A DNA stretch of 39,788 nt from a virus (Duplodnaviria; Caudoviricetes): positions 1 to 39,788 of the IMG/VR virus record IMGVR_UViG_3300036825_000021; one strand, 5' to 3'. Both the position numbers and the translations under genes were made by a program. Under the pieces are notes generated by a model. The model did no database searches. It was given only the letters and a program-made list of their open reading frames with translations, and had not been told where the DNA came from. Numbering within the stretch: the stretch's first letter is position 1; each line of letters begins with the position of its first letter. This document shows, piece by piece, positions 1,254 to 23,287 of the stretch.

Positions 1254-1370
1254 ATGAAAGATTGGGTACAACTCCTGACAGCAGCCATCCAGTGTTACAC
1301 CGCTTACCTGCTGCTCAAGGACAAAAAGAAAGGAACCAAAAAACGCCGCGTCCCACGCAAACGTAAATAG
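1254..1370 (+). CDS. Small membrane peptide A, 38 aa (type I toxin-like)
   Basis: RBS AAAGGAG; MKDWVQLLTAAIQCYTAYLLLKDKKKGTKKRRVPRKRK has a hydrophobic helix and a basic tail. Confidence 0.8.
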   Translation: MKDWVQLLTAAIQCYTAYLLLKDKKKGTKKRRVPRKRK

Positions 1371-1408
1371 GTTCCCGGAGGAAGGGATTGAGCCCCTTCC
1401 TCCACCCA

Positions 1409-1437
1409 ATCATAACACACTCGCTCCAGAAAATAAA
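1409..1437 (-). promoter_or_regulatory. Antisense promoter (TTTATT-17-TATGAT, extended TG) facing peptide A
   Basis: Reverse complement of ATCATAACAC; lies just 3' of the hairpin GGAGGAAGGG-ATTGAGC-CCCTTCCTCC. Confidence 0.55.
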
Positions 1438-1469
1438 TTAGCCGGCGGGCTCACGCGGGAGGGATATTA

Positions 1470-1556
1470 ATGTTGAATATAATCACTTGGATTGTTATCG
1501 GAGTATCATTTGTTTTGTCCATCATTGCAATGATTAGATCCCGGAGACGCCACTGA
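1470..1556 (+). CDS. Small membrane peptide B, 28 aa
   Basis: RBS GGGAGG; MLNIITWIVIGVSFVLSIIAMIRSRRRH. Confidence 0.75.
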   Translation: MLNIITWIVIGVSFVLSIIAMIRSRRRH

Positions 1557-1660
1557 TGCTACCGATACAACGACAGCACCATTACTCAAATGACAGTGCT
1601 GCTTACTTTGGAATGTCCCAGAGAACTTTTGAAGAACTAGGAGCACCCCCTAAATTATGA
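1556..1660 (+). CDS. Possible 34-aa ORF (vestigial HTH-like)
   Basis: TGATG overlap upstream and ATGA overlap downstream; MLPIQRQHHYSNDSAAYFGMSQRTFEELGAPPKL. Confidence 0.35.
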   Translation: MLPIQRQHHYSNDSAAYFGMSQRTFEELGAPPKL

Positions 1661-1893
1661 GGTGGGAAGAATTAAAGTCGGAACAGTCCGTGCGTATCTG
1701 TGACAATCACGATAGCGGATTTGGTGGAAGGTGTGGAAGAGTTGTAGCGATTGGTACTTTTATTGGAATCAGCGAACGTATAGGTGCTTTGATTGATATA
1801 CATGAACCGCTACTTATAATTATTGAACCAGAAGCCCTCGAAGAAACCGACTTGGAATTACTACCACCAGGATGGGAAGAGTTTGAAATATGA
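1657..1893 (+). CDS. Hypothetical protein, 78 aa (small beta-barrel-like, acidic tail)
   Basis: ORF track; followed by a terminator. Confidence 0.65.
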   Translation: MRWEELKSEQSVRICDNHDSGFGGRCGRVVAIGTFIGISERIGALIDIHEPLLIIIEPEALEETDLELLPPGWEEFEI

Positions 1894-1903
1894 TTTTTAA
1901 TTC

Positions 1904-1941
1904 AGCCTCCGCTGGCATAATGCTTAGTGGGGGGCTTTATT
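1904..1941 (+). terminator. Intrinsic terminator
   Basis: AGCCTCCGCT...AGTGGGGGCT followed by TTATT. Confidence 0.6.
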
Positions 1942-2026
1942 CATTCTACTAATATCTGCAAAATTTCATAGTAAATATTACCTATATTTGATAAACTTAC
2001 TCCATCAACCAAATATGGAGGTAAGT

Positions 2027-2761
2027 ATGAACAAAAAGAGATTGATTACCGCTGCAATTGCCAGCTTGGTCCTTGTATCTACGTTTTCCGCTGGCGCATA
2101 CGCTGCGACAAAAATTAATTTGATTGTAAATGGAAAAACTACGTCCGCTGATATTCAAGAAATTAAGGGTGCTCCTTATGTATCATTAAAAGATGTGGGA
2201 AATCTATTAGGAGCAAATGTGAAGTATGACAGCAAAACAAAAACAGCCACTATCACTAGCAAAGGAAACACAACTTCTCCCTCTACGAATGACACTGTGC
2301 AATCAAGCCGAACAAAGCCTGCTTCTATAGGATCTACTCAATCATTTACAGTCGATACTGTTTTGAAAAAGCATACCGGACAAGTTTCCATCACTCAAGT
2401 CATTCGCGGGGATGAAGCTTGGATGTTAATAAGCCAAGCAAATACGTTTAATACACCCCCGAAAGAAGGATATGAATACATTTTGGCTAAAGCCAACATC
2501 AAAATCATCTCAAACAAAAAAAATGTAGATGCAGCAGTCGATATTTGGAAAGGAGACTTTGTTCTTGTCTCTAGCGCTGGGACTGATTATGATACATTAT
2601 CAGCAGTTCTACCTGACCCTAGTATAGACGCAAAAGTATATGCAGGCTCATCTGCTGAGGGGTGGGTGGCGTTCCAGGTCAAGAAAGATGATCTTTCGCC
2701 AGTTATTAGCTTTGCTAGAAAATATGACGGTTCTGGTGGTGTCTGGTTCAAAACAAACTAA
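2027..2761 (+). CDS. Secreted protein: signal peptide + copper-amine-oxidase N-terminal (stalk) domain + DUF4352-like domain
   Basis: RBS GGAGGT before ATG 2027. MNKKR-hydrophobic-AYA signal; LIVNG...PYVSLKDVGNLLGANVKYDSKTKTATIT; C-terminal EGWVAFQVKKDD. Confidence 0.85.
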   Translation: MNKKRLITAAIASLVLVSTFSAGAYAATKINLIVNGKTTSADIQEIKGAPYVSLKDVGNLLGANVKYDSKTKTATITSKGNTTSPSTNDTVQSSRTKPASIGSTQSFTVDTVLKKHTGQVSITQVIRGDEAWMLISQANTFNTPPKEGYEYILAKANIKIISNKKNVDAAVDIWKGDFVLVSSAGTDYDTLSAVLPDPSIDAKVYAGSSAEGWVAFQVKKDDLSPVISFARKYDGSGGVWFKTN

Positions 2762-2801
2762 AAAACAGCCCTACCACCCATCTATAGGTTAGTAGGGCTT
2801 T
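2760..2801. terminator. Bidirectional terminator between convergent genes
   Basis: AGCCCTAC...GTAGGGCT with A and T tracts on either side. Confidence 0.7.
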
Positions 2802-2826
2802 GTCATATTCTCAGACGTTTAGAAAT

Positions 2827-3522
2827 TTACTTGGTATTAAACGTAGCTGTTTTTGTCTTATTATCAAAGCCAATCTGTGCTCCTATAGCCTTGCCGATGG
2901 CTGCTAACGGTACGTAGGTCCTCCCCTCAATCAGTACGCTATCCTCTTGCAACTTCGTGCCATTAACTATAGTAATTGCTTTATCTACCTTCACGTCTTC
3001 ACACTCCCTCAAATATCGATCTATATTAGATAACGCTTTTGCCATTGCTGTTTCAGAAGGCCTCTGCCCAGCCCTTAACTGAGAGATGATGAGTCCAAAA
3101 GTCATTTGAAAATGTGGCGCATCCTTAATAGAGACAAAATCGCCGCCCCACTCGAATCCGAGAGCCTTAGCCTCCTGAACCACCTCTATCCAGTCAGCTA
3201 CTTTATCACCATCACCGTCTCGCTTCATATCCCAGGATACCTGTTTGCCATCTGGTAGCAACAGAGCAAAGTCTATAGCTAGTCCATAGTTATGATAACT
3301 GGTACCTCCCTTGGCATTAGTAACGATGTTACCTGGTTTAGAACGTCCCTGCGCGTAGAGAGCGTCTTGTTCGGCAATTGTCCGTAGCCCCTGAGTAATG
3401 ACTATATTTACCCCACGAGCGTAACAGCGCTCAATCAGTGCTATCGTAGCAGCCTTAACGACAGAATGTAGCCCAGAGATCCGAGCGGAGGACTTAGTTT
3501 TTACTTGTTCTATAGTTATCAT
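2827..3522 (-). CDS. Endolysin, M15 family L-Ala-D-Glu peptidase (Ply500/CwlK-like) with C-terminal stalk domain
   Basis: GLRTIAEQDALYAQGR, SYHNYGLAID, WGGDF and DAPHFQ motifs; adjacent to the holin. Confidence 0.93.
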   Translation of the reverse strand: MITIEQVKTKSSARISGLHSVVKAATIALIERCYARGVNIVITQGLRTIAEQDALYAQGRSKPGNIVTNAKGGTSYHNYGLAIDFALLLPDGKQVSWDMKRDGDGDKVADWIEVVQEAKALGFEWGGDFVSIKDAPHFQMTFGLIISQLRAGQRPSETAMAKALSNIDRYLRECEDVKVDKAITIVNGTKLQEDSVLIEGRTYVPLAAIGKAIGAQIGFDNKTKTATFNTK

Positions 3523-3980
3523 TACTCATCATCCTCTTTCCGCGAAGCCGCACGTTTAATCTTTTTATCCAATTCACTACCTACCCACTTAAGCACTACA
3601 TCCATTACGGATAAGGGCAACCAATCACCCCAACCGGCTCGGATCGAATTTGCAGTCATGCTCTGTAAGACATGATATAAGGTTCCCACAGCCAACGCCC
3701 CGAAGATTGCTCCTGAGAATCCGAATACACCGTCCAGTAAATGACCGCCAGCTGGCAAAAGCAACATAAAGAAGCTTCGGAAAATACCATCAATACCATA
3801 CTTACTGGCATAAGTATTGTCTTTTTTAGCTGCTCGGACACCAGAAAGCCAGTCCATTACAATAAAAAATACAAGAGCTGCCATTACTGCAGAAACTGCG
3901 TCCGTCTCTCCGTATAAAAATTCGAATACCGGAACGGCTACTGCCCCAACTGCAGATGCAACAATTTGTGATTTTGTCAA
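3522..3980 (-). CDS. Phage holin (family 4 type)
   Basis: TM segments; MDWLSGVRAA and SMTANSIRAG motifs; TAATG coupling to the lysin. Confidence 0.85.
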   Translation of the reverse strand: MTKSQIVASAVGAVAVPVFEFLYGETDAVSAVMAALVFFIVMDWLSGVRAAKKDNTYASKYGIDGIFRSFFMLLLPAGGHLLDGVFGFSGAIFGALAVGTLYHVLQSMTANSIRAGWGDWLPLSVMDVVLKWVGSELDKKIKRAASRKEDDE

Positions 3981-4053
3981 AGTCCTTCCCCCTCAACACA
4001 AATAGCCCCGGTGAGTTCCGGAGGCGTAAAAAAATCAATGATATGTCAATGGT

Positions 4054-5502
4054 TTAGTTGTATAATGCCTTGCCTTTAAACGTCATAGAATTGTAACCAG
4101 AACCAACGGTACTTTCTACTCTGTACACTATTCTTACATAGTTATCCATGTTAAAAGGTTTAGTAAAAGTACCATTTTCTCCGATATCAGTTTCTCCATC
4201 CCAACCCCCAGATCTTTCAGGCCCAGAACCATTAAATGTAGTAGTTATCTGACGTTTCGCTTTATCAATGTATAGACCAGAGGTGGTATAGGCTCGGCTA
4301 TTATTTGATAAGTACCCTCCTCCAGTCAGCTTCAACTCATTACCATAAGCGTCAATAGCCAATAAAAGACCACGTACTAATTTCCAGTCTTGTAGAGAAA
4401 GAGTTAAATTCACTAATCCAGCACAAGATAGATAACTGAATCCGGCAGGTACTCTAAGAAGCTCAACCTCTTGTCCTGACTCTAGCCCAATGTGGTCTGC
4501 ATTCATCGGAAGAGATCCGCCGAAATACTCTCTCATGTTACCGACCAAACCACCAACGTTAACTCCTGCCCGTAAATTGTTAGCTGTTAGTCCAGGAACT
4601 GGATAGGTTACCCATGAGGAACCGTTGAAGTATCCAGCAGGGGGCATAATGAAGATCCTGTCTCCATCCCAAACGGTTACCGCTGATCCGGGCATGTGTT
4701 GATTTCTTGCTGAGAGGTTCGGTATGCCTCCATTTACCCCATAGATGTTGTTGCCCTCAAGAATAACGTCAGCCCGAAACTCTGAATCGGCTGACTGAAG
4801 TTGGGCAGTTGTAACTCGAATTTCACCGGCGCCTGCACCACCTTTACGATACCCCTCGCGTGGGTACACGGCCAAGTCTCCGTTACTCCACTGCCCCACA
4901 CCTATCGCGGGATCACTGGTTGATGTGATATGAGGCATCATTCCTACAAAATCGCCTTCCTCATTGGTAAAAGTGTACGGCGTGAGTACATGCTGGCGCT
5001 GGGCGTTGCCGTACCCCCCAGCGCTATCTGCCAAAAAATCAGTCCCTACCTTTCGAAAGGTGTAAGGCTTACCAGCCAGCAACCTACCCGCAGCATAGGC
5101 ATTCCCGCGCTGATCTTTCAAGGGTATGGGACCCAACCCATTTATATTCAGTGTTGCATTTTCTCCGTTAATCACATGAGGGATAATCGTGATACCAAAC
5201 CCTTCGTAATACCCGGTGGGGCCGGGGTTGAGTGCCGCATTGTAAACGGCTGCTGTTCCACTGGTTTGTGCAAAACCCGGTTGTCGAATATAGTTGGCGT
5301 TAGCTTGTGACAAGGCGGCTTCAATCGCCAAAATACCCTTCTCAATATTGTTTAGAGGGTCTGCGTTTAGCGGGGTACCCGCTGCTATGATCGTTCCCTC
5401 AGCAGGAACCAATGTGACGGTTCCGTTTGGGTTTGTTTCAAGTACATATGTTCTTGGATTTTCTACTTCTCTATTTTCCCAGGTTGTCCTGTTGTACGCC
5501 AT
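4054..5502 (-). CDS. Tail fibre / receptor-binding protein
   Basis: Last gene of the tail module. N-terminal GTPLNADPLNNIEKGI; NATLNINGLGPIPL; Gly-rich repeats. Confidence 0.75.
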   Translation of the reverse strand: MAYNRTTWENREVENPRTYVLETNPNGTVTLVPAEGTIIAAGTPLNADPLNNIEKGILAIEAALSQANANYIRQPGFAQTSGTAAVYNAALNPGPTGYYEGFGITIIPHVINGENATLNINGLGPIPLKDQRGNAYAAGRLLAGKPYTFRKVGTDFLADSAGGYGNAQRQHVLTPYTFTNEEGDFVGMMPHITSTSDPAIGVGQWSNGDLAVYPREGYRKGGAGAGEIRVTTAQLQSADSEFRADVILEGNNIYGVNGGIPNLSARNQHMPGSAVTVWDGDRIFIMPPAGYFNGSSWVTYPVPGLTANNLRAGVNVGGLVGNMREYFGGSLPMNADHIGLESGQEVELLRVPAGFSYLSCAGLVNLTLSLQDWKLVRGLLLAIDAYGNELKLTGGGYLSNNSRAYTTSGLYIDKAKRQITTTFNGSGPERSGGWDGETDIGENGTFTKPFNMDNYVRIVYRVESTVGSGYNSMTFKGKALYN

Positions 5503-5513
5503 CCGCTTTCCTC

Positions 5514-5864
5514 CTATAAAGTACTGTAATATTCCCAGAGGAGATTAAGGTTTCTTTCCCATCTGTTCAGATCAAGGTAACCAAAGGGCTGATCTTCTGT
5601 CCAAGGTAGATCTCTTGAACGCCATCCTATCGGAGTGTTTGGACTTCTAAGAGTTTCCAGATTTTTCTCTACTCTAGCAAATTCCTCCTTGTAGGGTATC
5701 CACCACATATTCCTCTGAAATACCCCGGCAGTTATAACTACCTGTACATTCTTTGACTTCATCAATTCCCATACGGCCTGTACATTCTTTTCAATTTTAT
5801 CCATATCAGCATAGTTAAAATAATCTTTAGCCGTCCAATTTAACTTAAGCGCTGTCCAAGCCAA
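5514..5864 (-). CDS. Tail/baseplate protein
   Basis: Position; internal repeat W..xDYFNYADMDKIEKN / W.EDQPFGYLDLNRWERN. Confidence 0.65.
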   Translation of the reverse strand: MAWTALKLNWTAKDYFNYADMDKIEKNVQAVWELMKSKNVQVVITAGVFQRNMWWIPYKEEFARVEKNLETLRSPNTPIGWRSRDLPWTEDQPFGYLDLNRWERNLNLLWEYYSTL

Positions 5865-5879
5865 ACGATCACCCCATTA

Positions 5880-7280
5880 TCAGTACTTCTGTAGAATAAC
5901 CTGTGCTGACACATAGTCAGACGTACCCAGACTGCCGTACATCCCGTAAGGGGTGATAGTACAGTTAACCCCTAGCTGTCTTCTGTTGCCGTCTGATAGA
6001 GCGCCTATTACCGCAAGAACCATGGTGTTGTCTTTATTCCAGGAGGAATCAGGGAAGTTCATATTGAAGTCCGTTGTTCCTGCTATAAGGGCAACATCTA
6101 CAACCTTCTTCTCATTTAGAGGAGCGCCGTTTATTGTAATGCCTGACCCTGGGTTGATCTTCATTTGATTCTTTTTTACTTTCTTGAAAGATGTATGAAT
6201 ATTCACATAGTAGCTAAACTGTAGATCAAGTAGCAGCCCTGAAGTAGTCCATGTTTGCGGCTTATTTTTCATGTGTTCATCGTAATAAAGAGTCTTACCT
6301 ATGAAGCTGGTGATTACCATATTGTCTTTATTCCAAGAAGCATCGGGAAAAGGAATAAGTAAGGTTGTAGCCCCATTAGGATTGTCATCCCTAGAAAAAG
6401 TGGCTAAGATTTCTTCCCCATTTATCTCTACCTGACCATCCTGATCAATCTCAAAAAGATTCTGCCAATTCTCAACGGTGGGTCTTACATACCCCGCCAG
6501 CTTTTTCACTACAAACTTCATTTTCTGCATCAGGGCTCTAGCTGAACCTAAGTTAACCTGTGTATCGCTCTGGTCATAAAAATTGACAGGTGACTCAAGG
6601 CCGTAATAATACCCGTCCAACTGGTCTTCATCTTTGTTCCACAGCCCATGCTGAGTGTTCCACATAGTTCCGTTATAGGCAAATTTGTATTCCGGGACGG
6701 GCCTGTTTGGTACACTGCTGCCACCGCTGAATAGGCCAAGGGACACCCGTTTAAATGGTGAAGTGCCAGAACCATCAATCTCGAAACCTGCACCGCCAAT
6801 TGTCATGCCTCCATAAGCATCTAGCATAAAGTGGTTATTCCAGCCGAGCATGATGCCAAACTCCCTCCAAGACCCATCTGGCTGTAAGGCACCAATATCC
6901 TCCCCGGTCTGGTCTCTGGCTGGATCCCCCTCTGAATATGCCTTTTTTCCATTTGCTTTCCAAAGGTTAATCCCCTGATTGATAAAGTCTCCTATGTTTT
7001 CTTCACCCGGATAAGTGCCACCACCCTGCCACTGCCATCCAAAGCTAAAGTTATTCACGTCTGTACGCTTAAACCGTTTAGTGTCGTAGTCATACCAAGC
7101 ATTGACCAGTAGCCAGACTTCTGTGTAAGGTACCCCGCCGCGTACCCCCTCAATAACGGTAAAGTTATAAGGCGTAGTCGGGCTGGTGGAATTTCTAGGG
7201 AACAAGGACATGGTTCCTTCAGCATTAACAGTTTTCTTTTGATTGCCTTGGCTCGTCGATTCCTTAATCCCCCAATCCAT
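5880..7280 (-). CDS. Tail-associated protein, 466 aa
   Basis: Position; Gly/Trp-rich; C-terminal duplicated motif FPD.SWNKDN. Confidence 0.65.
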   Translation of the reverse strand: MDWGIKESTSQGNQKKTVNAEGTMSLFPRNSTSPTTPYNFTVIEGVRGGVPYTEVWLLVNAWYDYDTKRFKRTDVNNFSFGWQWQGGGTYPGEENIGDFINQGINLWKANGKKAYSEGDPARDQTGEDIGALQPDGSWREFGIMLGWNNHFMLDAYGGMTIGGAGFEIDGSGTSPFKRVSLGLFSGGSSVPNRPVPEYKFAYNGTMWNTQHGLWNKDEDQLDGYYYGLESPVNFYDQSDTQVNLGSARALMQKMKFVVKKLAGYVRPTVENWQNLFEIDQDGQVEINGEEILATFSRDDNPNGATTLLIPFPDASWNKDNMVITSFIGKTLYYDEHMKNKPQTWTTSGLLLDLQFSYYVNIHTSFKKVKKNQMKINPGSGITINGAPLNEKKVVDVALIAGTTDFNMNFPDSSWNKDNTMVLAVIGALSDGNRRQLGVNCTITPYGMYGSLGTSDYVSAQVILQKY

Positions 7281-9146
7281 TTACACGCCCCCTTTTGATT
7301 CTGATCTTCCGCCCAGATAACCTTGAAAGTTGTATTCTTGCTTTGTGATACGTGACTGCTTTTTATTTCCAAAACTATCCTCAATCAGCACAATGTCACC
7401 GCACTCTATGGCTGGGTTTTGTCTCCAATTGACAGAGTAAGCAGCCCGTGCCGCAAACTCAGATGCCAACCAATTTCCTACGTCAAGCGCCTGCTCTGGG
7501 GAGTTAATTAAAGGGTTTTCCACTGCAAGAGTCGTGCCCTCTTTTACAGCGGGGTTTGCTAAACGATAGATCGTAGTAGCTGCTGCAAGAGTTTTTCCCG
7601 AAATCGCTATGGATACATCCCCTTTAGCAATGATCTCCAGTTCTATGCCTACATCGTATGTTTTCTTTACCATGTGGGACGTAGCGCCGGTGATGCTTAT
7701 TTGTACTGAGGAAGCTATGATAGGTGTTTGATATTCAAAAAAAATAGTCTTAGTCCCCGATATTGCGACAACTGTATTTAGTACTTGGTCAAACGTATCT
7801 TGCAGATAATTTATTACGGACATATCAATATTTTTCACGGCATCCTCAAGCTTTATTTGAGGCTCCTTGTAGGCATTGTCAAAGTCTATCATCTTCATTT
7901 GATACCCACCGTCTGCGTACATATGAGTATCGAAACTAGCAATCATGTCAGACTCACCCGAAAAATTCAAGAACGTTGTTCTAGCGTCGATTTCAACGAA
8001 TCTGCGGATAATCGGCACCCCTGTAACACGGTCTTGATAAATTGCAGCCTTACCCGCTATACCAATACATTGCAAGGCTTTTCGAGAAGCAATTTTTGAC
8101 TTGAATCCCTGAGTGGGTATCGCCTGTAACGCTGGGTCAATTAAATATGCTGTGATACCTGCCTTTAAGAAAATGTCCTCAGCCAAGGCGTACAAGTTGG
8201 TATTTGCTATACTAATATAGTCGATAGTTTCCATAGCATTGAGAAAATCTCTCGCCGTGAAAGTGGTAGTTAGGGTACCTTCATCGCTTTTCCAATCGGT
8301 CAGATAATACCTTTTTATAGATACATATTCAAAGCTGCCCGGCGTTACCTCAAGCCCTATAGATAGACTGACCTCTTGATTTCTCTCAAGAAACTTATAG
8401 TATCCTTGCGGATTCAGGATATTAAATGCTTTATCTGAGTTATCAACTACAAACCTAATCTCGTTTGATGGCAGGGTGTCGCCTACCACATTCATTTCTT
8501 CCAGCAAGTTTACGCTTATCAGCTTATTGCCGTCATAAGTCTGTACAACCCCGAAATCTATTTCTGTTATCCGGGCTCTTCTGGACCCATTATTCCATTT
8601 AAGTATGTTGATTCTGACTTCTTTATAATTAGAAACTGGAACTGCGTGTGTGTAATAAACAGCGGTGTTACCTTCCACGGTCACAGTTTCTAATGTTTCA
8701 TTCGTTTCAGAATAAAACAGTATCTCAAAACTTTCCGGGCACTCGTTTGCAAGTACATCAAAAGTTACAGCTACCCCTAATGTGGTTACAAGCGTATTAA
8801 ATGTAACCGCTACATACTCTTGATTGGCAAACACTCCTTCTTCGCTGCATATGGAATCGCTCCACCAACCGACCTCGCTTGAAAGGTTATCTGAAGGTTT
8901 TGGAACAATGCAGTAAGTGCCATCCAGTAACCAATAGTTGGTTTCAAATGTTCCGTACTTTTTTGACATGTTACGTACTTTATCCACTACCTGACTCTTC
9001 CGGCTGAAGGGAGCTTCAAAGGAAGTAACCACCCGGTTCACTTCCTCGTAAGCTTCGTTGTTGATTATCTGAAATTCTACTTGCGCAGACGTTTTTCTTG
9101 TAGGGGCATACACTGCCTTTTTGAACTGATTAGATACATTGATCAT
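7281..9146 (-). CDS. Baseplate hub / Tal-like tail protein
   Basis: Follows Dit; C-terminal WRQNPAIECGDIV motif. Confidence 0.7.
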   Translation of the reverse strand: MINVSNQFKKAVYAPTRKTSAQVEFQIINNEAYEEVNRVVTSFEAPFSRKSQVVDKVRNMSKKYGTFETNYWLLDGTYCIVPKPSDNLSSEVGWWSDSICSEEGVFANQEYVAVTFNTLVTTLGVAVTFDVLANECPESFEILFYSETNETLETVTVEGNTAVYYTHAVPVSNYKEVRINILKWNNGSRRARITEIDFGVVQTYDGNKLISVNLLEEMNVVGDTLPSNEIRFVVDNSDKAFNILNPQGYYKFLERNQEVSLSIGLEVTPGSFEYVSIKRYYLTDWKSDEGTLTTTFTARDFLNAMETIDYISIANTNLYALAEDIFLKAGITAYLIDPALQAIPTQGFKSKIASRKALQCIGIAGKAAIYQDRVTGVPIIRRFVEIDARTTFLNFSGESDMIASFDTHMYADGGYQMKMIDFDNAYKEPQIKLEDAVKNIDMSVINYLQDTFDQVLNTVVAISGTKTIFFEYQTPIIASSVQISITGATSHMVKKTYDVGIELEIIAKGDVSIAISGKTLAAATTIYRLANPAVKEGTTLAVENPLINSPEQALDVGNWLASEFAARAAYSVNWRQNPAIECGDIVLIEDSFGNKKQSRITKQEYNFQGYLGGRSESKGGV

Positions 9147-9157
9147 GTACTTTACCC

Positions 9158-9499
9158 CTACCTTTCTATGATGCTAAAGGATACTTCGCTGTATTGCACA
9201 ACCCCATTCTTTACAAACAAGGCCGGGGCTTTTCTATCGCCAGAATAAAAGGTGCCTGTCCTATCTCCGGTCTGCGGATCTTTGTATGCCACCTGGAAAA
9301 ACACCCCTGAAACCAGATTAAGTATATTTGCAAACTGTGCTTCCGTTAGCATTTTCCATCCAAGGTCTATTTTTCTTTTAGTTGCTATGCGCTCCAATAA
9401 CAGCAGCCCATTAACGTTACGTTCCCCTTTGGACAAATCCTGTATGGATACAACGTATTGTGTAGGGCTGGGAAGCAATACTCCGTTGACAGAAATCAT
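9158..9499 (-). CDS. Distal tail (Dit-like) protein
   Basis: Immediately after the tape measure gene; KRKIDLGW and FYSGDR motifs. Confidence 0.7.
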   Translation of the reverse strand: MISVNGVLLPSPTQYVVSIQDLSKGERNVNGLLLLERIATKRKIDLGWKMLTEAQFANILNLVSGVFFQVAYKDPQTGDRTGTFYSGDRKAPALFVKNGVVQYSEVSFSIIER

Positions 9500-9510
9500 T
9501 CGGATTCCTC

Positions 9511-15139: not shown

Positions 15140-15147
15140 GAGATCAC

Positions 15148-15477
15148 CTACTTCTCAGCTTTAACAGGCTTCTTTACGTCTGCCAGTTGCCCCTTCAGCG
15201 TCTCGATTTCCTTTAGCGCATCGTCAAGTTGCTGTTGAAGACCTGCCAGTGCTCCTGGAGAGCCAGATCCCGAAGCAGCTACTTGCTTTTTAAGTTCAGC
15301 ATTCTCCCGTATTACAGCCTCATGATCCTTGTAGGATACTGTTTTACCTGGAGCGTTTTCCACCACCTCAAGCTTGTCACCTTCCTGAGTGGCGATATCA
15401 TAGCCCAACTTCAAGTAGGTTCCCCGCTCCGCGTCGTCGATCTGGAGCTGTTTATTCCCTTTCACTGCAAATAGCAT
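15148..15477 (-). CDS. Hypothetical head-associated protein with coiled coil
   Basis: RBS GAAAGGAG before ATG 15477. Confidence 0.7.
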   Translation of the reverse strand: MLFAVKGNKQLQIDDAERGTYLKLGYDIATQEGDKLEVVENAPGKTVSYKDHEAVIRENAELKKQVAASGSGSPGALAGLQQQLDDALKEIETLKGQLADVKKPVKAEK

Positions 15478-15511
15478 AGTTTTATTCTCCTTTCGGCTAC
15501 AGGCCGGTATA

Positions 15512-16387
15512 TTATTCCTCTGCGTTGATCTGAATGCCATCTGCCTTGCGGTTAATCAAGAACAGATCCGTATAACGGCGATTTTGATACAGATATCCAT
15601 CGCCACCTGTGTGACTACCAGGTTCCCACAGGTAAATAGCACTGTGTTTAATTGGAGCAATTACTGCCTGTGGGTGGATAAGGATCATATTGATCTGTTT
15701 TGCCCCCACACCAGGCACAGCCCCGTTCGTAAAGTTGAAGGCACTCTTCATCCGACTAGATGGCACTTTAACCAGGGTCACGTCATCAAGGCTTCTTACC
15801 GCACGGTCAATGGCTCCGTTGTTCGCTTGGACATTAATAACTCGCTTCATGTCCTCCGCTTGCTTCAGCAGCGTATGCACAGTAGGAGTCACGTACATAA
15901 TTCGGCCTTCTTCGGGTACCTCTGCCTCATCCATATTTTGCATGAGCTTATCGAAGACTTGCAGCGCATTAGCAACCGACAACACCGTAACGTCAGGTGT
16001 TTTGCCCAAGGCTACATAATCCGCATAGAGCTTGCTATAACGGTATTTATCCAACTCTGGAATTGCCTGCTCCGTTTCAAACACGTTTGTCGTATTGGCT
16101 GCAGACAGGATCTGATTAGTTTCATCAACGTCCATAGCATCCACATAGAACTCAACGTCACGGTCAAACGCCAGCACCTTCGTTTCAAAATCATTGCTGA
16201 TCGCCTGACGGTTCCATCCACCTGAACGGCTGTGGTCCTTGTAACCCCCAACGTCCAAACGCGGGATCTTAATTGTTTTAGATCCAATAAAAATGGCGTT
16301 CTGTGTGGTCAATCCAGAAGAAGTTAACTCCTTCGTATATTTTTGATGCAGCACTGTCAGAAAACTATCTACGTAGTTATAAGGCAT
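15512..16387 (-). CDS. Major capsid protein
   Basis: Follows the scaffold gene; TIKIP, DAMDVDET and PELDKYRYSKL motifs. Confidence 0.9.
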   Translation of the reverse strand: MPYNYVDSFLTVLHQKYTKELTSSGLTTQNAIFIGSKTIKIPRLDVGGYKDHSRSGGWNRQAISNDFETKVLAFDRDVEFYVDAMDVDETNQILSAANTTNVFETEQAIPELDKYRYSKLYADYVALGKTPDVTVLSVANALQVFDKLMQNMDEAEVPEEGRIMYVTPTVHTLLKQAEDMKRVINVQANNGAIDRAVRSLDDVTLVKVPSSRMKSAFNFTNGAVPGVGAKQINMILIHPQAVIAPIKHSAIYLWEPGSHTGGDGYLYQNRRYTDLFLINRKADGIQINAEE

Positions 16388-16422
16388 TTTTACATCTCTC
16401 CTCTTTAATTATTAGCTATTTG

Positions 16423-17016
16423 TTATTTGGTGTCTGCAACACCGAAGATATTGGCCAATTGTTCATTGGAAGCCGCTCCAGCTCCACCTTGACCGCCTCC
16501 ACCACCTATACGGAAGCCTCCTTGCCCACCGTTTCCACCACCAGTGTCCTCTGGCTTGAATAGGTAGGCGTCTGAGGTCTGCAAGCCCTTGAGCTGCTCA
16601 TCTAGGCCAACCACTCTCCCATCATCCCCGATCACCAGCTTGTCTTTCTTGATCAAGCCAGTAACAACAGCCTCATTGTGGACTTTGCCATTCAGTGCGG
16701 CTGTAATGGCGTTCGTTAACGTCATGTCTTTTAAATCAGCAGCGTACTTTTCTGCGGCAGTCTTGTTCTCACCCTGCAGCTTAGCGATCTCGGCTTTCAG
16801 CGTCTCAGAAGCACCCGCGTCTTTACTGAGCGTTTCAAGCTGCGCATCACGGTCTGTAATGTCCTTCTCCAGCTTCTTCTTGGTGTCGGACAGATCGTTA
16901 TACTGTGACTTAGGAACAAAATGCTTTGGCAGCTCCTTGTTCACGTCACCAATCAGACCGTCAATCTTTGATTCATCAAAGCCAGCATCTTTTAACAACT
17001 TTTTTAACCATTCCAT
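16423..17016 (-). CDS. Capsid scaffolding protein (GP20 family)
   Basis: FVPKSQYN, a coiled coil and GLDEQLKGLQTSDAYLF. Confidence 0.9.
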   Translation of the reverse strand: MEWLKKLLKDAGFDESKIDGLIGDVNKELPKHFVPKSQYNDLSDTKKKLEKDITDRDAQLETLSKDAGASETLKAEIAKLQGENKTAAEKYAADLKDMTLTNAITAALNGKVHNEAVVTGLIKKDKLVIGDDGRVVGLDEQLKGLQTSDAYLFKPEDTGGGNGGQGGFRIGGGGGQGGAGAASNEQLANIFGVADTK

Positions 17017-17126
17017 TTATGATCAGCCTCCATAGATTTGTATAGCTGCTCTCCAGCTAAGGGATTGGGCCGTGATGCTCCGGCCAACGAGCAAATAGGC
17101 CACAACAGTCTCAATCGTGGCCATGA

Positions 17127-17210
17127 TTATCGCTTCTTGCTACTTCCAATTCCAAAAATAATGATTAGTGTCAGGCAAATAATAAAAGTAATCATAACGC
17201 TATCAGACAA
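17127..17210 (-). CDS. Small hydrophobic peptide, 27 aa
   Basis: RBS GAAAGGCGGTG, TTG start; MSDSVMITFIICLTLIIIFGIGSSKKR. Confidence 0.55.
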   Translation of the reverse strand: MSDSVMITFIICLTLIIIFGIGSSKKR

Positions 17211-17235
17211 GGGTAGTCACCGCCTTTCAGGCATG

Positions 17236-17266
17236 AAAAAAGCACCCTCGCAAATGCGTGAGTGCC
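17236..17266 (-). terminator. Terminator after the immunity gene
   Basis: GCACTCACGCA-TTT-GCGAGGGTGC followed by TTTTTT. Confidence 0.65.
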
Positions 17267-17268
17267 TG

Positions 17269-17580
17269 TCAATCGAGAGCGTCAATCGCCCATTGTATGT
17301 CCATTTCCATGTCTATGTCAGGATACTTATGTTGTAGTTCGCGCAACAGATCAATAAATTCCTGGCTCTGTAGCCGTTCAGAAACATCCTCGAAGTAGCC
17401 ACCCATCCTATTAACTTCAGTGGGCGTACACTTCAACAACAATTCTTTTGTTGTATCAAAGTCCTGACTTAGCACCTCAACAATCTCACCCCAATATTCA
17501 TCCAGAGGCGGAGATGCTCCGTTTTGAGTCATCATATCAATGATCTGCAAATTTGTTGTAATTATTTCGTTGCCAGTCAC
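17269..17580 (-). CDS. Putative immunity protein for the MuF toxin
   Basis: Small, acidic and helical; GTGA overlap with the toxin stop codon. Confidence 0.7.
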   Translation of the reverse strand: MTGNEIITTNLQIIDMMTQNGASPPLDEYWGEIVEVLSQDFDTTKELLLKCTPTEVNRMGGYFEDVSERLQSQEFIDLLRELQHKYPDIDMEMDIQWAIDALD

Positions 17581-19205
17581 TTTTCTTCATCTCCTACCAG
17601 CCTCTGCGTTTCATCAGGGAATATTGTTGTAATGCCCTTCCTTTGGGTATCATACACAACCCCGACAGTCACGCTACGATAGTTTGCATATTTGAATATT
17701 GAAATGAGCTCACCATTAACCTTTTTCGGCTCCAATTGAAACTGATCTGGATCTTGAAGGTTTGCCACATACATACCAGCTTTCTCAATGTCCTCTGCGG
17801 TCCAACTCTTCGGAAACCAGGATTGTTTTGTGCCCGATTTCTTCAACTTGTCCTTATGCGAAGGCACATTACCAATGCGCACGCCGTTTTTATACTCTTT
17901 AACGACATTATACTCGATTCCATGCCCTATCAAAAGCTGAATGTTCTCTTCCCCATGTCCGCCCTTGCTAAAATTACCTATTGCCTGCTTTTTCGGATTC
18001 TTAGGGTTTGTAAATTCACCTTTAGATGCATGCTTGATCGCTTCAGGCTGCATTTCTAACGGCTTGTTCTTATTATGCAAACCGTTATCAGGTATTTTCT
18101 GAACGGGAATCTTAAATTTCTCACGGCTATAATCTCGGCGCAGGTGCTCATTTGCCTTAACATGCTCCCTAAGCTTACCTTGCCACTCCTTCACCTTAGC
18201 CGCAGCTGCAGCCTGGTTAATTGGATCAACACTGCCTGACTCTCGGCGCTTGTACTTGCGGATCTGGCGCTCCATATAGCGTTGCTTCTGCTCTGCCTTA
18301 TAGTTGGCTAGTGCCTCCGCATCATTCACAGGCTCAGGAAGTCGGCTTTTACCAGGAATGAAGGTTGTCATGTTATGGCGGCAGTTTGGATGAAACAGCC
18401 CTGCTGCCATTGCCTTACTCAGTAGTGGGTAGGGACCGTCAGAAGCTTTACCGCCACTATACACATCATCGATGTATACTTTACCTTGCCATGGCAAACA
18501 CAGCTCAGAACAGTTACTGTGAGCGGACACCACAACAAATGGATTACGCTGTTGTTTGCGTTTAGCTCCCTCTCCCTCGAACACTGCTCTCTGGGAGGAT
18601 GCACGCAGAGCCATTTCAGCATAAGAGGCTATATTCATTCTTCGACCATTAGCAAACTGTATACAGTCAAAACCTTTATCAAGAAAATCACCTGTGGCCA
18701 TGTCAATAGCTTGGTTAAGTGAAGCAGCACCGGAGTTAAGATAAACCTGAGATTTGAATATTGTTTGCCGAAATATATCATCTGCTTGTCTAAGCACAGC
18801 AAAACGTGCAGCTTTCATCTCTCCTTGTGCAGCTGATGTCAAGGCGTTAACTCGCTTTTCATTAAGCTTGAAAAAGTTTTCATCAGAAACGCCTTCAACA
18901 TCCAGCTTATCTGGGATAATCTTACCCAACAGCTTTTTAGCTGCTCGTTTAATCCCATCTAGGAAACCACCCTTGACCTCTCGCTCGATTGCTATATTAA
19001 CCACAGGCTCAGTCTTCTTAACAATCTGAGTAGCCTCTTGCTTGTACTGCTTAAGATCCAGCAGCTTCTTCTCCTGCCATTGATCCCACTCGAAACCCTC
19101 TTTCTTCTCCTCATTCTCATGACGGGTCAGATTCCGCTTCATGGAGGCTATCAGGTCAATCTCCATCTGAGCAAAGATGCCTCGAATGTCATATTTCTTC
19201 TTCAT
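17577..19205 (-). CDS. MuF/minor capsid protein with C-terminal EndoU-type RNase toxin domain
   Basis: CSELCLPWQG and FHPNCRH MuF motifs. The C-terminal part has the bacterial EndoU pattern H..xG, GGHG, NGVR.G, SWFPKSW, ITTIFP. Confidence 0.85.
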   Translation of the reverse strand: MKKKYDIRGIFAQMEIDLIASMKRNLTRHENEEKKEGFEWDQWQEKKLLDLKQYKQEATQIVKKTEPVVNIAIEREVKGGFLDGIKRAAKKLLGKIIPDKLDVEGVSDENFFKLNEKRVNALTSAAQGEMKAARFAVLRQADDIFRQTIFKSQVYLNSGAASLNQAIDMATGDFLDKGFDCIQFANGRRMNIASYAEMALRASSQRAVFEGEGAKRKQQRNPFVVVSAHSNCSELCLPWQGKVYIDDVYSGGKASDGPYPLLSKAMAAGLFHPNCRHNMTTFIPGKSRLPEPVNDAEALANYKAEQKQRYMERQIRKYKRRESGSVDPINQAAAAAKVKEWQGKLREHVKANEHLRRDYSREKFKIPVQKIPDNGLHNKNKPLEMQPEAIKHASKGEFTNPKNPKKQAIGNFSKGGHGEENIQLLIGHGIEYNVVKEYKNGVRIGNVPSHKDKLKKSGTKQSWFPKSWTAEDIEKAGMYVANLQDPDQFQLEPKKVNGELISIFKYANYRSVTVGVVYDTQRKGITTIFPDETQRLVGDEEK

Positions 19206-20713
19206 TCGTCATCATCTTCAGTCGGAGCCGCATCTTCCAGATCATCAGGTGGAGCGTCTCGGTTAATACCTGTATCTTCAACCTCCAAAAAACCTTGCTC
19301 TTTCTTCAACAGTTCTACCTCAGCAGCCTTTTCTTCATCGGTCCAGGTGTCACCATACATCTCCTCGACGGCTCGCTCGATACTCATCACACCGAATGTG
19401 CGGGCTTTGCCAACCGTCTCCACAACAGCATCAAAGGAAGGAGAAGCATACTCCCCGAAGGTTACGCTGGCCTCATACTCACCTGCAGTACGATTTTGCA
19501 TCGTGTCATATACCTTCATGACGGTCTGCACCAACTCAGGGATGACTTCATTCAGCCGATCCACGATCTTGCCACGAGTGTACAACGTGGCCTTCTCCTT
19601 CTCCCGCTGAGCCTCTGCGTTATCGGTCTTTTTAAGATCGATCCCTAGAGTAGATGGACTAATAATGCCCTGTAAACACATATCCAAAGCGCTGCTATAG
19701 CTGGCCACAAATGCCTCATAGAGTATCTGAGGTTGCACCATGTCCATCTGCCCCTTGGAGTCCTCTGCAAGACCTGTGTTCAGCTTGATAAATTGATTAT
19801 CAAATGGATTAGATCGCATAAGTTCGCCCGTTTCGGGGTTTATGGGAACCAGATCCTGCGGAATGTATTTCTGCACGCGACCAGCACGAATGGCATCTAC
19901 CCACTGACTGATCACCTCATCAAGCGCGTCGAAAGAATCAGCCTTACTGTCAAAAATGCTCTTTCCACGCCCTGGCCACTTGGTGGACTTAAACACCATA
20001 AGCGGCACAGCCATGATAAAGTCACCGTCATATTCAATGTCCTTCAAGTCTGCTATTTCAGGGACCAGGGACAACGGTACTTGCTTACCATTAGCATCCA
20101 GCAACTGGTAACGAATGTACTTACGGCCAAATGTCTCTATGAGCCGATAATCCTTACTGTCAACCGTGTAATCGGAATAGAAAAGAACTTCCTGTAATCG
20201 TCCTCGGGTACGCTTAAACTCCACCTGATCACCATTGTAGAATTCAATTAGTGGATATCCACTGACATTCTGGTCTACTGTGATCTTAAAGGCACCGTCT
20301 CCAGCTGTTAGCGCCTCTGTTACGGCACCACTCAGTAATTCAGGGAAATCGTTGTCCTCACTTATAGCTTCCCATGTATCCGTCTCGGCTTGCTGTTTAA
20401 GCGTAATGGCATCCATGTCGGAAACCACAATATCAGACAACCGATCTGCTACCATGGCCGGCAGCCCGCTGTGGATCTTCCGGATACCCAGGCCATTACT
20501 TGGAACAGCTGCCCAGAAGCGTGATTTCCCCACGCTATCCGTCATCGACTGCTTATAGAATTGATCCAGCTCGGATGGATCTCCACGATACCAAAGTCGA
20601 TTCCTCAGCACATTGGTACGGTAGCTAAATGGCTCCGTGATCGTGATGACCTGGCTTTCCGGTGCCGGGTTGATCCTCAGTATTTTCATAACCATGCTCT
20701 TAAACCACCCCAC
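19202..20713 (-). CDS. Portal protein (A118/SPP1 type)
   Basis: Position after TerL; GIISPSTLG and VTFGEY motifs; acidic tail. Confidence 0.88.
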   Translation of the reverse strand: MGWFKSMVMKILRINPAPESQVITITEPFSYRTNVLRNRLWYRGDPSELDQFYKQSMTDSVGKSRFWAAVPSNGLGIRKIHSGLPAMVADRLSDIVVSDMDAITLKQQAETDTWEAISEDNDFPELLSGAVTEALTAGDGAFKITVDQNVSGYPLIEFYNGDQVEFKRTRGRLQEVLFYSDYTVDSKDYRLIETFGRKYIRYQLLDANGKQVPLSLVPEIADLKDIEYDGDFIMAVPLMVFKSTKWPGRGKSIFDSKADSFDALDEVISQWVDAIRAGRVQKYIPQDLVPINPETGELMRSNPFDNQFIKLNTGLAEDSKGQMDMVQPQILYEAFVASYSSALDMCLQGIISPSTLGIDLKKTDNAEAQREKEKATLYTRGKIVDRLNEVIPELVQTVMKVYDTMQNRTAGEYEASVTFGEYASPSFDAVVETVGKARTFGVMSIERAVEEMYGDTWTDEEKAAEVELLKKEQGFLEVEDTGINRDAPPDDLEDAAPTEDDDE

Positions 20714-20716
20714 TTT

Positions 20717-22057
20717 CTACACCCCCAGTCTCTTCTTGAATGGCTGCACGCTGTACTCGCTACTATCCAAACAGTCAACCGGATAGCTGCCGTCATCGGT
20801 TCTCACCCATTCACCCTCTATGCGCTTCTTCTCGTCCCAGGTGGCGTTTTCCAACGCCTCTTGCCACTCTTTCAGATGGCTCATGACCTTGTAGCGGCCC
20901 TGATTGATAAGGATACTGGTAAGTCGGATCCGGTCCACGATGCCCTCTTTCTTGTATGACGGTGTCACTGTGATGAAGATCTTCCGGCGCTGTAGCTCAT
21001 TGAGAAGTGCCTGACGGAACAGCTTATCCGCAGATTCCGCGAAGATATGAGCACACGCAAAAAAAGCAGGGTACGTATTACCCCACTCCTCAATCTTATC
21101 GACTATTTCCTTGGCGTAACGGTCATGCGTGTAGCCTGTTGACTTACCTTGCTTGTGATAGTAACCATCCAGGAGCACAACCTCTTTATGCTGTGGCGTG
21201 AATCCTGTCAGAGTGGCTACCGTAGCATCTGTACCACCTATATCTATCCCGATGCTGAATTCAATGAACCGCTCATCCTGGATAGCAGCTCGGGCAATGA
21301 TTACGTCCTTGACAGTATAGCCGGTATATATCCGACCTGTGGCTGCTGTACGCATTCCCTTGATATCAGCCTTATACCATAGGCTGTCCTTGTCATACGT
21401 AGCAAGAACCATACGTAGCTGTTCATCTGAGATTGACAGGTTATCAAAAACGGTGAAGTGTCCGTAATTGTACCCTGGGTTACGGCCTGCTTTCTTCTCC
21501 TTATCCTGAAAGTCCAGGAAATCCCGATAGAACCAATGTGCCGGCGGCTTCGGGTTAAGATCAAAGAAGAGTTGCCGTTTGCTACTAGCGACTGTACGGT
21601 CAATTGCCTCCTGCACAAAGCTCTGATGGCACTCATTGACCTCAGTGATGTACACCGTGCCGTAGGAGTTACCCTTGATCCGCGCTGCGTCATTGGCCTT
21701 ACCACCACCTGCGATAATAACAACCTTCTCACCGGTCTTTGTCTGAATATACAGTGCATCCCGGTTCTTATACTCCCCTTCGCGGCAACGACCTGCAAAC
21801 AGCCACTGAAGCCCGAATCCGTTGGAGTCTATTGCGTTCATCTTGGCGGCGGCTAAGCTCACCCCTGCCACCAGATGCAGCTTATCGGGGTGCACCTCCA
21901 GGCACATTGCATATGCGATTAGGTTAATGATGTTCTTTCCTGCCCGTTTACCACCTTCTGCCACGTTTAGCCAGCTGTCACGGCTTGCAGCAATATAATT
22001 GCTCTGCTTGGCAGTAAGCGGTGCATACGGGATCATTACAGCCTCACTCATCGTCAA
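20717..22057 (-). CDS. terL: Terminase large subunit
   Basis: EGGKRAGK Walker A, YITE Walker B, DLNP, and the GIDIGG nuclease motif. Confidence 0.93.
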   Translation of the reverse strand: MTMSEAVMIPYAPLTAKQSNYIAASRDSWLNVAEGGKRAGKNIINLIAYAMCLEVHPDKLHLVAGVSLAAAKMNAIDSNGFGLQWLFAGRCREGEYKNRDALYIQTKTGEKVVIIAGGGKANDAARIKGNSYGTVYITEVNECHQSFVQEAIDRTVASSKRQLFFDLNPKPPAHWFYRDFLDFQDKEKKAGRNPGYNYGHFTVFDNLSISDEQLRMVLATYDKDSLWYKADIKGMRTAATGRIYTGYTVKDVIIARAAIQDERFIEFSIGIDIGGTDATVATLTGFTPQHKEVVLLDGYYHKQGKSTGYTHDRYAKEIVDKIEEWGNTYPAFFACAHIFAESADKLFRQALLNELQRRKIFITVTPSYKKEGIVDRIRLTSILINQGRYKVMSHLKEWQEALENATWDEKKRIEGEWVRTDDGSYPVDCLDSSEYSVQPFKKRLGV

Positions 22058-22766
22058 TCACCCGCTCAGCTACGGGATTGTTAATCAAATCCGCCAGAGC
22101 TGTGATCTGCGCGTTCGGATCATCGCCGTCTTTATTTGGCACCTTAGACTTCAGCACGTCGATACGAGCTTTCTGTTCCTCCGTTGCCAGATCCGTCTTC
22201 AGCAGCTCATCATACTGCTTGATCATACCCTGGAGCGTTGTCATTGCCCGGCTCTGAGCCGTAAGGAAGGACGCCTGCTTATCCCAAGCCTGCTGCACTT
22301 CCCATTTTTGGCCTGACACATTGCCGTCCTTTTCCTCGATCAGCGTGGTCGTGCTGTCATCCCGATCTTTGACGTACATGATCTGCTGAGCCCTGATGAT
22401 GGCGGTGTACTGGATCATGATGTTGTCCCACAGAATATCCAGAGGAGCTCGGTTCTGCAGTTGCTCCATGATGGCCAGCGACTCTGCCGGCAGATACTTA
22501 GCGAACAGTCCATGCTTCTCGGCGTTCTTGTTTCGCTTCGGTGCGGATCCGCCCTTATTGCCAACAGCGTTTTGATTACCCGGTGGTGCACCTCCACGGT
22601 TAGGGTGCGCCCTTTCAGCTTTGGGTGCACCCATATCCCGATTCCAGCCGTGACGCTTCTTCCATGACTTCACCGTGTTAATGGAGACGGCATATTTTTC
22701 AGCAATTGCTTTATATTTCATGCCGGACACATAATCCTGCTCGGCTAATTTAGAAGTTTCAGCCAT
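22044..22766 (-). CDS. terS: Terminase small subunit (PBSX XtmA-like)
   Basis: N-terminal HTH NTVKSWKKRHGW; GAPPGNQNA and NKNAEKHG motifs. Confidence 0.9.
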   Translation of the reverse strand: MAETSKLAEQDYVSGMKYKAIAEKYAVSINTVKSWKKRHGWNRDMGAPKAERAHPNRGGAPPGNQNAVGNKGGSAPKRNKNAEKHGLFAKYLPAESLAIMEQLQNRAPLDILWDNIMIQYTAIIRAQQIMYVKDRDDSTTTLIEEKDGNVSGQKWEVQQAWDKQASFLTAQSRAMTTLQGMIKQYDELLKTDLATEEQKARIDVLKSKVPNKDGDDPNAQITALADLINNPVAERVIDDE

Positions 22767-22805
22767 ATTACATTTTCACCACCCCCGCCGTTATGTTTGT
22801 TTCGT
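22737..22805. repeat. 69-bp imperfect direct repeat, copy 1 (terS start and leader)
   Basis: 56/69 identical to 23560-23628. Confidence 0.9.
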
Positions 22806-22874
22806 ATGGCCACTCAGAAAGCCCAACCTTCTTATGTTTGGTCTTAATTATTTTATGGACGAGACTAAAAACAC

Positions 22875-22905
22875 AAAAAAGCCCAACCTAAAAAAAGATT
22901 GGACT
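22875..22905 (-). terminator. Minus-strand terminator (probable end of the antisense RNA)
   Basis: AGTCCAATCT-loop-AGGTTGGGCT followed by TTTTT. Confidence 0.65.
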
Positions 22906-22915
22906 AATCGCAATA

Positions 22916-22949
22916 GATACTTTACAGATGTAAAGTATCGTGTTATAAT
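22916..22949 (+). promoter_or_regulatory. SigA promoter TTTACA-17-TATAAT (extended TG) overlapped by a perfect operator palindrome
   Basis: GATACTTTACA-GA-TGTAAAGTATC at 22916-22939. Confidence 0.85.
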
Positions 22950-22975
22950 TAATATATCAAGAGGAGGTGATAATA

Positions 22976-23092
22976 ATGAAGAAACGAAGAGAAAGACGGA
23001 AAGAGGATAGAGAGTCAACCTTCAAGATGGTGACTGCAATCATCACCTTGATAAACTCCATCCTCACCCTCATCATCCTGCTGCTCAAGTAG
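22976..23092 (+). CDS. Small membrane peptide C, 38 aa (type I toxin-like)
   Basis: RBS GAGGAGGTG; MKKRRERRKEDRESTFKMVTAIITLINSILTLIILLLK. Confidence 0.8.
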   Translation: MKKRRERRKEDRESTFKMVTAIITLINSILTLIILLLK

Positions 23093-23163
23093 GAAAACCC
23101 GAAACCTTGGCCCCGAAAGGGGCTAAGGCATAGGGGATGAAAATCAAGGGCCGTCTTTCCTTC

Positions 23164-23192
23164 AGTATATCACACTCATAAGGAGCGATGAA
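23164..23192 (-). promoter_or_regulatory. Antisense promoter (TTCATC-17-TATACT, extended TG) facing peptide C
   Basis: Reverse complement of AGTATATCAC; same relative position as 1409-1437. Confidence 0.6.
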
Positions 23193-23194
23193 GC

Positions 23195-23287
23195 ATGACA
23201 CGCAAAGCAAGAGCTACAGAGTTAATGACTTATGCCGCGCTTGTAATCAGTATCGCCAATACCGTTATATTGCTGGTGAAGTGGTAA
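23195..23287 (+). CDS. Small membrane peptide D, 30 aa
   Basis: RBS AAGGAG; MTRKARATELMTYAALVISIANTVILLVKW; TAATG coupling to the HTH gene. Confidence 0.75.
   Translation: MTRKARATELMTYAALVISIANTVILLVKW

Follow-up and report, generated by a model that had tools for sequence, protein, structure and literature searches.

Two small-peptide cassettes of a Caudoviricetes virus are probable type I toxin-antitoxin modules resembling yonT-SR6-yoyJ

Introduction

The described system to which the two small-peptide cassettes considered here come closest is yonT-SR6-yoyJ of the prophage SPbeta (Rfam RF02892; PMC5848175), for which Reif et al. (2018) report a 100 nt antisense RNA (SR6), RNase III-dependent decay of the yonT message, a stable yoyJ-yonU product and weak, indirect toxicity of YoyJ, together with homologues in five Bacillus species that lack the annotated yoyJ start (PMC5848175). 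The cassettes lie in the virus record IMGVR_UViG_3300036825_000021, the whole of which, 39,788 bases carrying endolysin, terminase and sigma-like genes, is the window analysed, and each encodes two short peptides, A and B in cassette 1 and C and D in cassette 2. YonT is toxic (PMC5848175, PMC3531473), and RNase III is essential owing to yonT and txpA (Durand et al. 2012, PMC3531473); a 2019 review describes YonT and YoyJ as widespread in Bacillus and the structure of yonT RNA as undetermined (PMC6562991), and T1TAdb has a YonT family (PMC8594479). So far yonT/SR6 has been regarded as a curiosity confined to a few Bacillus species, its second gene left unexplained.

Other described systems are comparable in part. 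The pairs txpA/RatA, bsrG/SR4 and bsrE/SR5 share with the cassettes, as predicted here, a small hydrophobic toxin, a convergent 3'-overlapping antisense RNA, a prophage location and a structured message hiding the start region, but have one peptide and no regulator (PMC6562991). Phages B13, Deep-Purple and yong1 encode phrog_4691/HTH_17 proteins homologous to the cassette 2 regulator, preceded in the same layout by two small membrane peptides; there, however, the helix-turn-helix (HTH) protein is annotated as excisionase or hypothetical and the peptides are longer and of other families. Our literature search found no paper on that cassette, and turned up no description of Paenibacillus cassettes or their attached regulators, subscription papers and preprint supplements lying outside its coverage.

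Results and Discussion

We consider it probable that both cassettes are yonT-SR6-yoyJ-like type I toxin-antitoxin modules that carry an additional repressor and whose second peptide is conserved, the toxicity of the peptides and the antisense RNAs being what we infer from the sequence. The common layout proposed by the first-pass annotation (promoter plus operator, 38-aa peptide, GC hairpin, antisense extended -10 element, short peptide and coupled open reading frame (ORF)) was recovered with all parts in place. Each sense promoter is TG-extended (1178-1206 and 22921-22949), the antisense words at 1409 and 23164 stand in the same register, and the stops of B and D overlap the next start (TGATG at 1554, TAATG at 23285). 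Cassette 1 lies beyond the endolysin gene, and cassette 2 is inverted, directly upstream of the small terminase gene.

With yonT-SR6-yoyJ the cassettes share the prophage setting, the extended -10 promoter and the GC hairpin (PMC5848175), as well as the operon order of first peptide, hairpin, antisense extended -10 and second membrane peptide, the last corresponding to YoyJ in the same operon. YonT likewise has a hydrophobic N-part and a very basic tail, the antisense extended -10 of SPbeta also lies about 40 nt past the stop of the first peptide, and SR6, like the antisense RNAs predicted here, has two hairpins and a U-tract end that faces Lys codons. Unlike YoyJ, however, which has two hydrophobic segments, B and D have one (28-30 aa); the predicted RNAs miss the ribosome site of the second gene whereas SR6 overlaps the yoyJ 5' end; the cassettes carry a dedicated regulator and operator whereas SPbeta is without HTH_17; and C/D have an inverted charge polarity. 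The idea that YonU is an HTH_17 homologue was rejected, YonU being unmatched and the SPbeta locus (L019; L numbers denote individual loci) having no HTH_17 match. The B and D profiles did not single out the 64-aa YoyJ core (p 0.32 and 0.49), and homology of YonT to its nearest look-alike, L106, is unproven (E 0.24). As judged from such comparisons, the cassettes resemble yonT-SR6-yoyJ by layout and are not members of it by sequence.

The earlier proposal of an undescribed family does not hold for the architecture, which is that of SPbeta (PMC5848175), though the match to the known system is partial because the peptide families, RNAs and regulator modules have no database match, be it at curated cut-off in Pfam, NCBIfam, PADLOC or Rfam or at a significant E-value in PHROGs. 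For peptides A-D themselves there was no Pfam or NCBIfam entry at curated cut-off and no significant PHROGs or PADLOC match, nor any match at cut-off to known type I toxin families (TxpA/BsrG/holin-like) in Pfam, PHROGs or NCBIfam; an Rfam scan of the window gave nothing at gathering score, and blastn of cassette 2 against phage records gave zero matches. A protein search with the C alignment returned four matches, one of them under the name hypothetical, and ESM Atlas matches were to unnamed clusters only, TisB (0.76 for C) being a chance-level lead. Within the searched parts of Fozo et al. 2010 (PMC2887945) there were no A- or C-like words (MKDW, KDWV and LTAII were absent from the 8 supplement files searched, file 3 excluded), and the Paenibacillus members of its TxpA alignment are holin-like METFQ peptides, not A or C. 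Phage Bloom has the gene of one of these peptides, a TxpA-family holin-like toxin (L018:1891-2052), just downstream of Xre and beside an A-B cassette in which A is unannotated.

Relatives were collected by requiring an intact first peptide and a strong ribosome site, which gave 80 records; removal of 2 non-cassette records left 41 A-type, 18 C-type and 19 other Bacilli-type loci (SPbeta included), and motif expectations were taken from dinucleotide shuffles. The layout proved to be conserved across this set: the antisense motif TGnTAnnnT is present in 41/41 A, 18/18 C and 12/19 other loci (shuffle expectation 5.2, 1.6 and 3.8), and on the sense strand in 2 A, 1 C and no other loci. An antisense hairpin with U-tract lies at 45-95 nt in 41/41 A loci (sense strand 0, shuffles 5.7), and in the C loci at 125-185 nt in 11/18 (shuffles 4.0) or 45-95 nt in 4/18 (2.3). 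Because this U-tract is complementary to the Lys/Arg codons of the basic patch, the length of the RNA would depend on where the patch lies. Both predicted starts (1402 and 23157) are upstream of the ribosome sites of B and D. Applied to SPbeta as a positive control, the same rules predict an antisense RNA of about 101 nt from L019 position 26706, the Rfam SR6 being 26704-26601, and thus recover the SR6 5' end to within 2 nt as well as its length. The longest cross-complement between the two cassettes is 6-8 nt, or 13 nt for the long form of RNA 2, and RNA rescue is predicted within each cassette only.

These elements could instead form a regulatory gate: peptide 1 would be no more than a harmless leader, and read-through into a variable accessory operon (cargo, B, DUF7667) would be tuned by the antisense promoter and RNA through processing or transcriptional interference. 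Variable cargo does stand behind the antisense promoter in 21/41 A loci, a conserved leader element precedes the downstream gene in 26/40, and several of the conserved residues of A (D-W, G-T and the Lys run) overlap RNA elements. Nevertheless we regard this as unlikely: A keeps its hydrophobic helix and its length under constraint (dN/dS 0.33), a sense-strand terminator occurs in the region in 0/41 loci, C cassettes are free of cargo between C and D in 18/18, and the analogous YonT is toxic (PMC5848175, PMC3531473).

All four peptides have dN/dS below 1 (Table 1), a measure in which RNA structure may bias dS. A hydrophobic second peptide lies within 700 nt of A in 36/41 loci (15 adjacent, 21 past cargo genes) and farther away in 3 more, D stands directly behind C in 18/18 loci, and a second peptide is present in all 19 other Bacilli-type loci. 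Decay leaves a pattern of its own, C being lost or frameshifted with D and the HTH gene intact in L020 and L021, and broken A copies (L041, L042, L043) having a changed or missing antisense -10. Within L042 (1480-1900, minus strand) the hairpin, the antisense promoter and B have been deleted between a pair of identical short words, and the start region and tail of A are altered.

The opposite charge polarity that had been noticed for A and C holds family-wide, basic charge being on the C-side of the helix in 37/37 A and 36/36 B peptides and on the N-side in 16/17 C and 12/18 D (6 ties). Membrane orientation is predicted from basic charge by the positive-inside rule, by which C and D would both be inverted, together, relative to A/B. 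Such joint flipping of both peptides, and the invariable association of A with B-type and of C with D-type partners, would also suit a two-peptide membrane device expressed at low level in lysogens to exclude superinfecting phages or block receptors, the peptide ratio being set by the antisense RNA, and a superinfection-exclusion family gene adjoins L025. The concerted flip is, however, a single evolutionary event, PADLOC gave no match, and tight, layered repression generally suits a toxin better than a constitutive exclusion protein; we therefore hold this explanation to be improbable also.

The regulators differ between the cassettes and are modular, as had been claimed, the divergent HTH_26 protein of cassette 1 and the co-directional HTH_17 protein of cassette 2 each having its own predicted operator. 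A divergent small gene accompanies all 41 A and 5 C loci; these 46 genes fall into 8 clusters, 6 of them HTH_26 and 2 without an HTH match, which may be ribbon-helix-helix-like. Promoter 8-mers are shared within regulator clusters (0.110) far more than between them (0.008), A identity being similar in both cases (0.67, 0.65), and the operator word of cassette 1 adjoins the same Xre cluster in L039 and L077. Downstream HTH_17 genes serve the remaining 13 C loci, and the palindrome TT(G/T)AC-N4-GT(A/C)AA covers the -35 box in 13/13 C loci with HTH_17 and 0/5 without, occurring elsewhere in 1/41 A loci and 13/18 other HTH_17 loci. Four of the 8 regulator clusters serve both A and C, and C/D pairs occupy the cassette 1 slot, with divergent regulators, in L047, L050, L051, L053 and L054; in L047, C and D sit between a divergent Xre gene and downstream genes typical of cassette 1 relatives. 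Such slot exchange and the swapping of regulators with operators indicate that the two cassettes are versions of one design. Tandem arrangements also occur, with two successive C-D-HTH units in L002 and L048, C-D next to Xre-A-B in L014, and neighbouring Bacillus-type units in L101 with L123 and in L134 with L147.

Helix-core profile comparison gives a probability of 63% for A vs C and 94% for B vs D (reversed controls 2% and 0.8%); because C vs D reaches 72% and C vs reversed unrelated Bacillus-type peptides 69%, common ancestry of A with C and of B with D is plausible and unproven. The features by which the first-pass annotation had linked A and C directly fared less well: the shared 13-mer does stand at 1307 and 23077, yet occurs in only 1/41 A and 2/18 C genes, and in the shared TA.I...LLLK the two parts are spaced differently (6 vs 11 residues apart) and do not stay in register. 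Stretches of at least 13 nt are shared in 6/738 A x C gene pairs, and recoding the same two peptides yields a shared 13-mer in 0.8% of trials, so that the word was rejected as a link, coincidence being expected at roughly 1%. That the cassettes are unrelated small-gene clusters, alike by chance or through the generic constraints on short membrane peptides, as this partly generic helix similarity and the unconserved 13-mer would allow, is most improbable, being largely refuted by the exchange of slots, by the regulator clusters common to both types and by profile selectivity, the A profile taking 13/17 C but 1/36 B and the B profile 14/18 D.

Both messages fold into closed forms (z -7.2 and -7.7). 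The first codons of C pair with the end of the 3' region through 8-16 perfect bp in 18/18 loci, and the fold-back words covary (cognate 11.8 vs non-cognate 7.0 bp, permutation p 5e-5); C also shows conserved pairing between ribosome site and coding region, as well as compensatory changes in an in-frame hairpin, and modelled removal of the fold-back takes codons 1-9 from 0.48 to 0.89 unpaired. Run on automatic alignments, RNAalifold overlooked this element because it covaries and misaligns, and the comparison of cognate with non-cognate words was used in its place.

On the toxin-antitoxin reading, the first peptide, a predicted membrane toxin, would be silenced by the predicted cis-antisense RNA, and the swappable DNA-binding protein would repress the promoter and limit transcription. 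By analogy with SR6, the RNA would pair with the 3' part of the peptide 1 message and RNase III would remove that part, and the second peptide, with the HTH protein in cassette 2, would stay expressed because their ribosome sites are not covered by the RNA, whose start lies upstream of them. The closed fold-back may add a translation lock, well supported for C and weakly for A. Were the prophage lost or transcription blocked, RNA synthesis would cease and the toxin would be released, with prophage maintenance or abortive infection as the outcome. The second peptide may be weakly toxic itself, the role published for YoyJ, or may be a partner that protects, the partner being slightly favoured.

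Several observations weigh against this interpretation. YonT does no better than local shuffles against the A and C profiles (p 0.68 and 0.70), and RF02892, which matches SPbeta at 128 bits, matches neither cassette at E up to 10 and none of 20 related loci at gathering score. The 3' end of RNA 2 is ambiguous and its short form folds no better than shuffles (z -1.5). For cassette 1, a look through sequencing runs listed no RNA data set that contains it. The A fold-back consists of 7 invariant pairs without covariation, overlaps promoter and coding constraints from either of which it is indistinguishable, and its modelled deletion leaves the start region closed (0.48 to 0.50). A and B need not act together, since cargo genes separate them in 21/41 A loci and L008 has a B-like gene but no A. 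The counts overstate independence because the loci share kinship, and broken A copies (L041-L044) failed the filter, as did L052, and stand outside the 41 A loci.

Breadth was estimated from genome samples. Peptide A is present in 18/116 genomes of a one-genus sample, 24/301 of a family sample and 23 viral loci, and peptide C in 10/301 genomes and 3 viral loci; genes near the cassettes include endolysin, terminase and integrase, and the closest named relatives of the cassette 2 HTH protein are in Paenibacillus (68-90% identity). The regulator family phrog_4691 occurs in 22/301 genomes of a class sample and 19/401 of a phylum sample. Among 56 loci examined, 15 are long fused ORFs and 41 stand alone, a count in which a few loci overlap; 31 of the stand-alone genes have a membrane peptide directly upstream and 25 have both peptides, 21/25 of these with the antisense motif. 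Fusions of the HTH domain to the N-terminus of other proteins also occur, these proteins being about 360-420 aa long in 12 loci and about 135 aa long in 2 (L115, L117, L118, L120, L137-L145, L087), and the fusion in phage phi OH2 is annotated DprA/SMF.

More tentatively, the cassettes could belong to a large overlooked superfamily of Bacilli phages, of which SPbeta yonT-yoyJ would be a stripped-down case, built as a three-layer switch of plug-in repressor, antisense RNA with its terminator written in the toxin's basic codons, and cognate membrane immunity peptide; the toxin-partner pair would have flipped orientation as a unit, and the real YoyJ would be a 64-aa two-helix partner, not just a weak toxin. 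If the cassettes work alike, the design would be common (25/41 stand-alone phrog_4691 genes with both peptides upstream), and, if true, type I systems would be extended by transcriptional autoregulation and by the swapping of modules, a protein family now labelled excisionase would gain a function, and natural pairs, matched and mismatched, of which this phage has two, would allow a direct test of what the second peptide does. The second peptide of the other Bacilli loci starts 62-115 nt past the first stop, downstream of the antisense promoter; the matching start in SPbeta (L019:26744-26936) yields the 64-aa YoyJ, which scores weakly on the other-Bacilli second-peptide profile (p 0.04). This start agrees with the remark of Reif et al. 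(PMC5848175) that relatives lack the 83-aa start, and suggests that YoyJ is annotated from too early a start.

Table 1. Positions of predicted and observed elements of the two cassettes within the window
Feature	Position	Strand	Details
Divergent Xre/HTH_26 regulator, 71 aa, likely the cassette 1 repressor	896-1111	-	PF13443 E 2.3e-19; divergent small gene at 41/41 A loci
Predicted operator of cassette 1, inverted repeat arms 1154-1171 and 1208-1225	1154-1225	.	flanks sense promoter 1178-1206 and Xre promoter 1160-1132
Peptide A, 38 aa, predicted toxin; N-part hydrophobic, C-tail basic	1254-1370	+	dN/dS 0.33
Predicted antisense RNA 1 (about 75-80 nt) with 5' hairpin, terminator stem and U-tract facing Lys codons of A	1322-1402	-	fold z -4.9
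Antisense extended -10 at 1417-1409	1404-1417	-	1404-1411 also complementary to A codons 3-5 (1260-1267)
Peptide B, 28 aa, single hydrophobic segment, basic C-tail	1470-1556	+	dN/dS 0.55
34-aa ORF, variable cargo, in the slot of relatives' 80-aa DUF7667 gene	1556-1660	+	not HTH_17
78-aa conserved gene, cargo of cassette 1 operon	1657-1893	+	homologues after DUF7667 in L028, L029, L033, L047
Predicted HTH_17 operator, perfect palindrome 22916-22939 covering -35 box; extended -10 to 22949	22916-22949	+	
Peptide C, 38 aa, predicted toxin; N-part basic, C-part hydrophobic	22976-23092	+	dN/dS 0.64
Predicted antisense RNA 2	22995-23157	-	end near 23090 (about 65 nt) or at basic-patch codons (about 155-165 nt)
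Antisense extended -10 at 23172-23164, and fold-back element 23151-23159 with its complement at 22991-22999	23151-23172	.	
Peptide D, 30 aa	23195-23287	+	dN/dS 0.48 (14 pairs)
HTH_17/phrog_4691 protein, 80 aa, co-directional, likely an autorepressor	23287-23529	+	HTH_17 E 1.5e-6

Neighbouring features

Downstream of B, the 34-aa ORF had been suggested to be an HTH_17 remnant; this is not sustained, as it scores like shuffles against a 120-protein profile (p 0.41) and has no Pfam match. Its overlaps at both ends are those of the relatives' 80-aa DUF7667 gene, profile similarity to which is undetectable (p 0.50). The leader element of cassette 1 (1441-1463), GC-rich and ending at the ribosome site, precedes the downstream gene, whichever it is, and is possibly a junction for cargo exchange. 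A near-consensus promoter (11/12) at 1793-1820 within the 78-aa gene is directed at a 244-aa secreted-type gene at 2027, and a terminator-like hairpin (1906-1933) follows the 78-aa gene.

Cassette 2 has a two-way terminator-like hairpin (23515-23538) and is bracketed by a 69-nt direct repeat (22737-22805 and 23560-23628, 81% identical). This repeat contains the beginning of the small terminase gene, and its upstream copy starts a spurious frame with identical first ten residues; the cassette has the look of a moron whose insertion duplicated the junction. Directly after it, opposing the gene direction of the phage, lies a 377-aa plus-strand membrane protein (23755-24888) that matches no family at cut-off and is a candidate accessory or defence gene.

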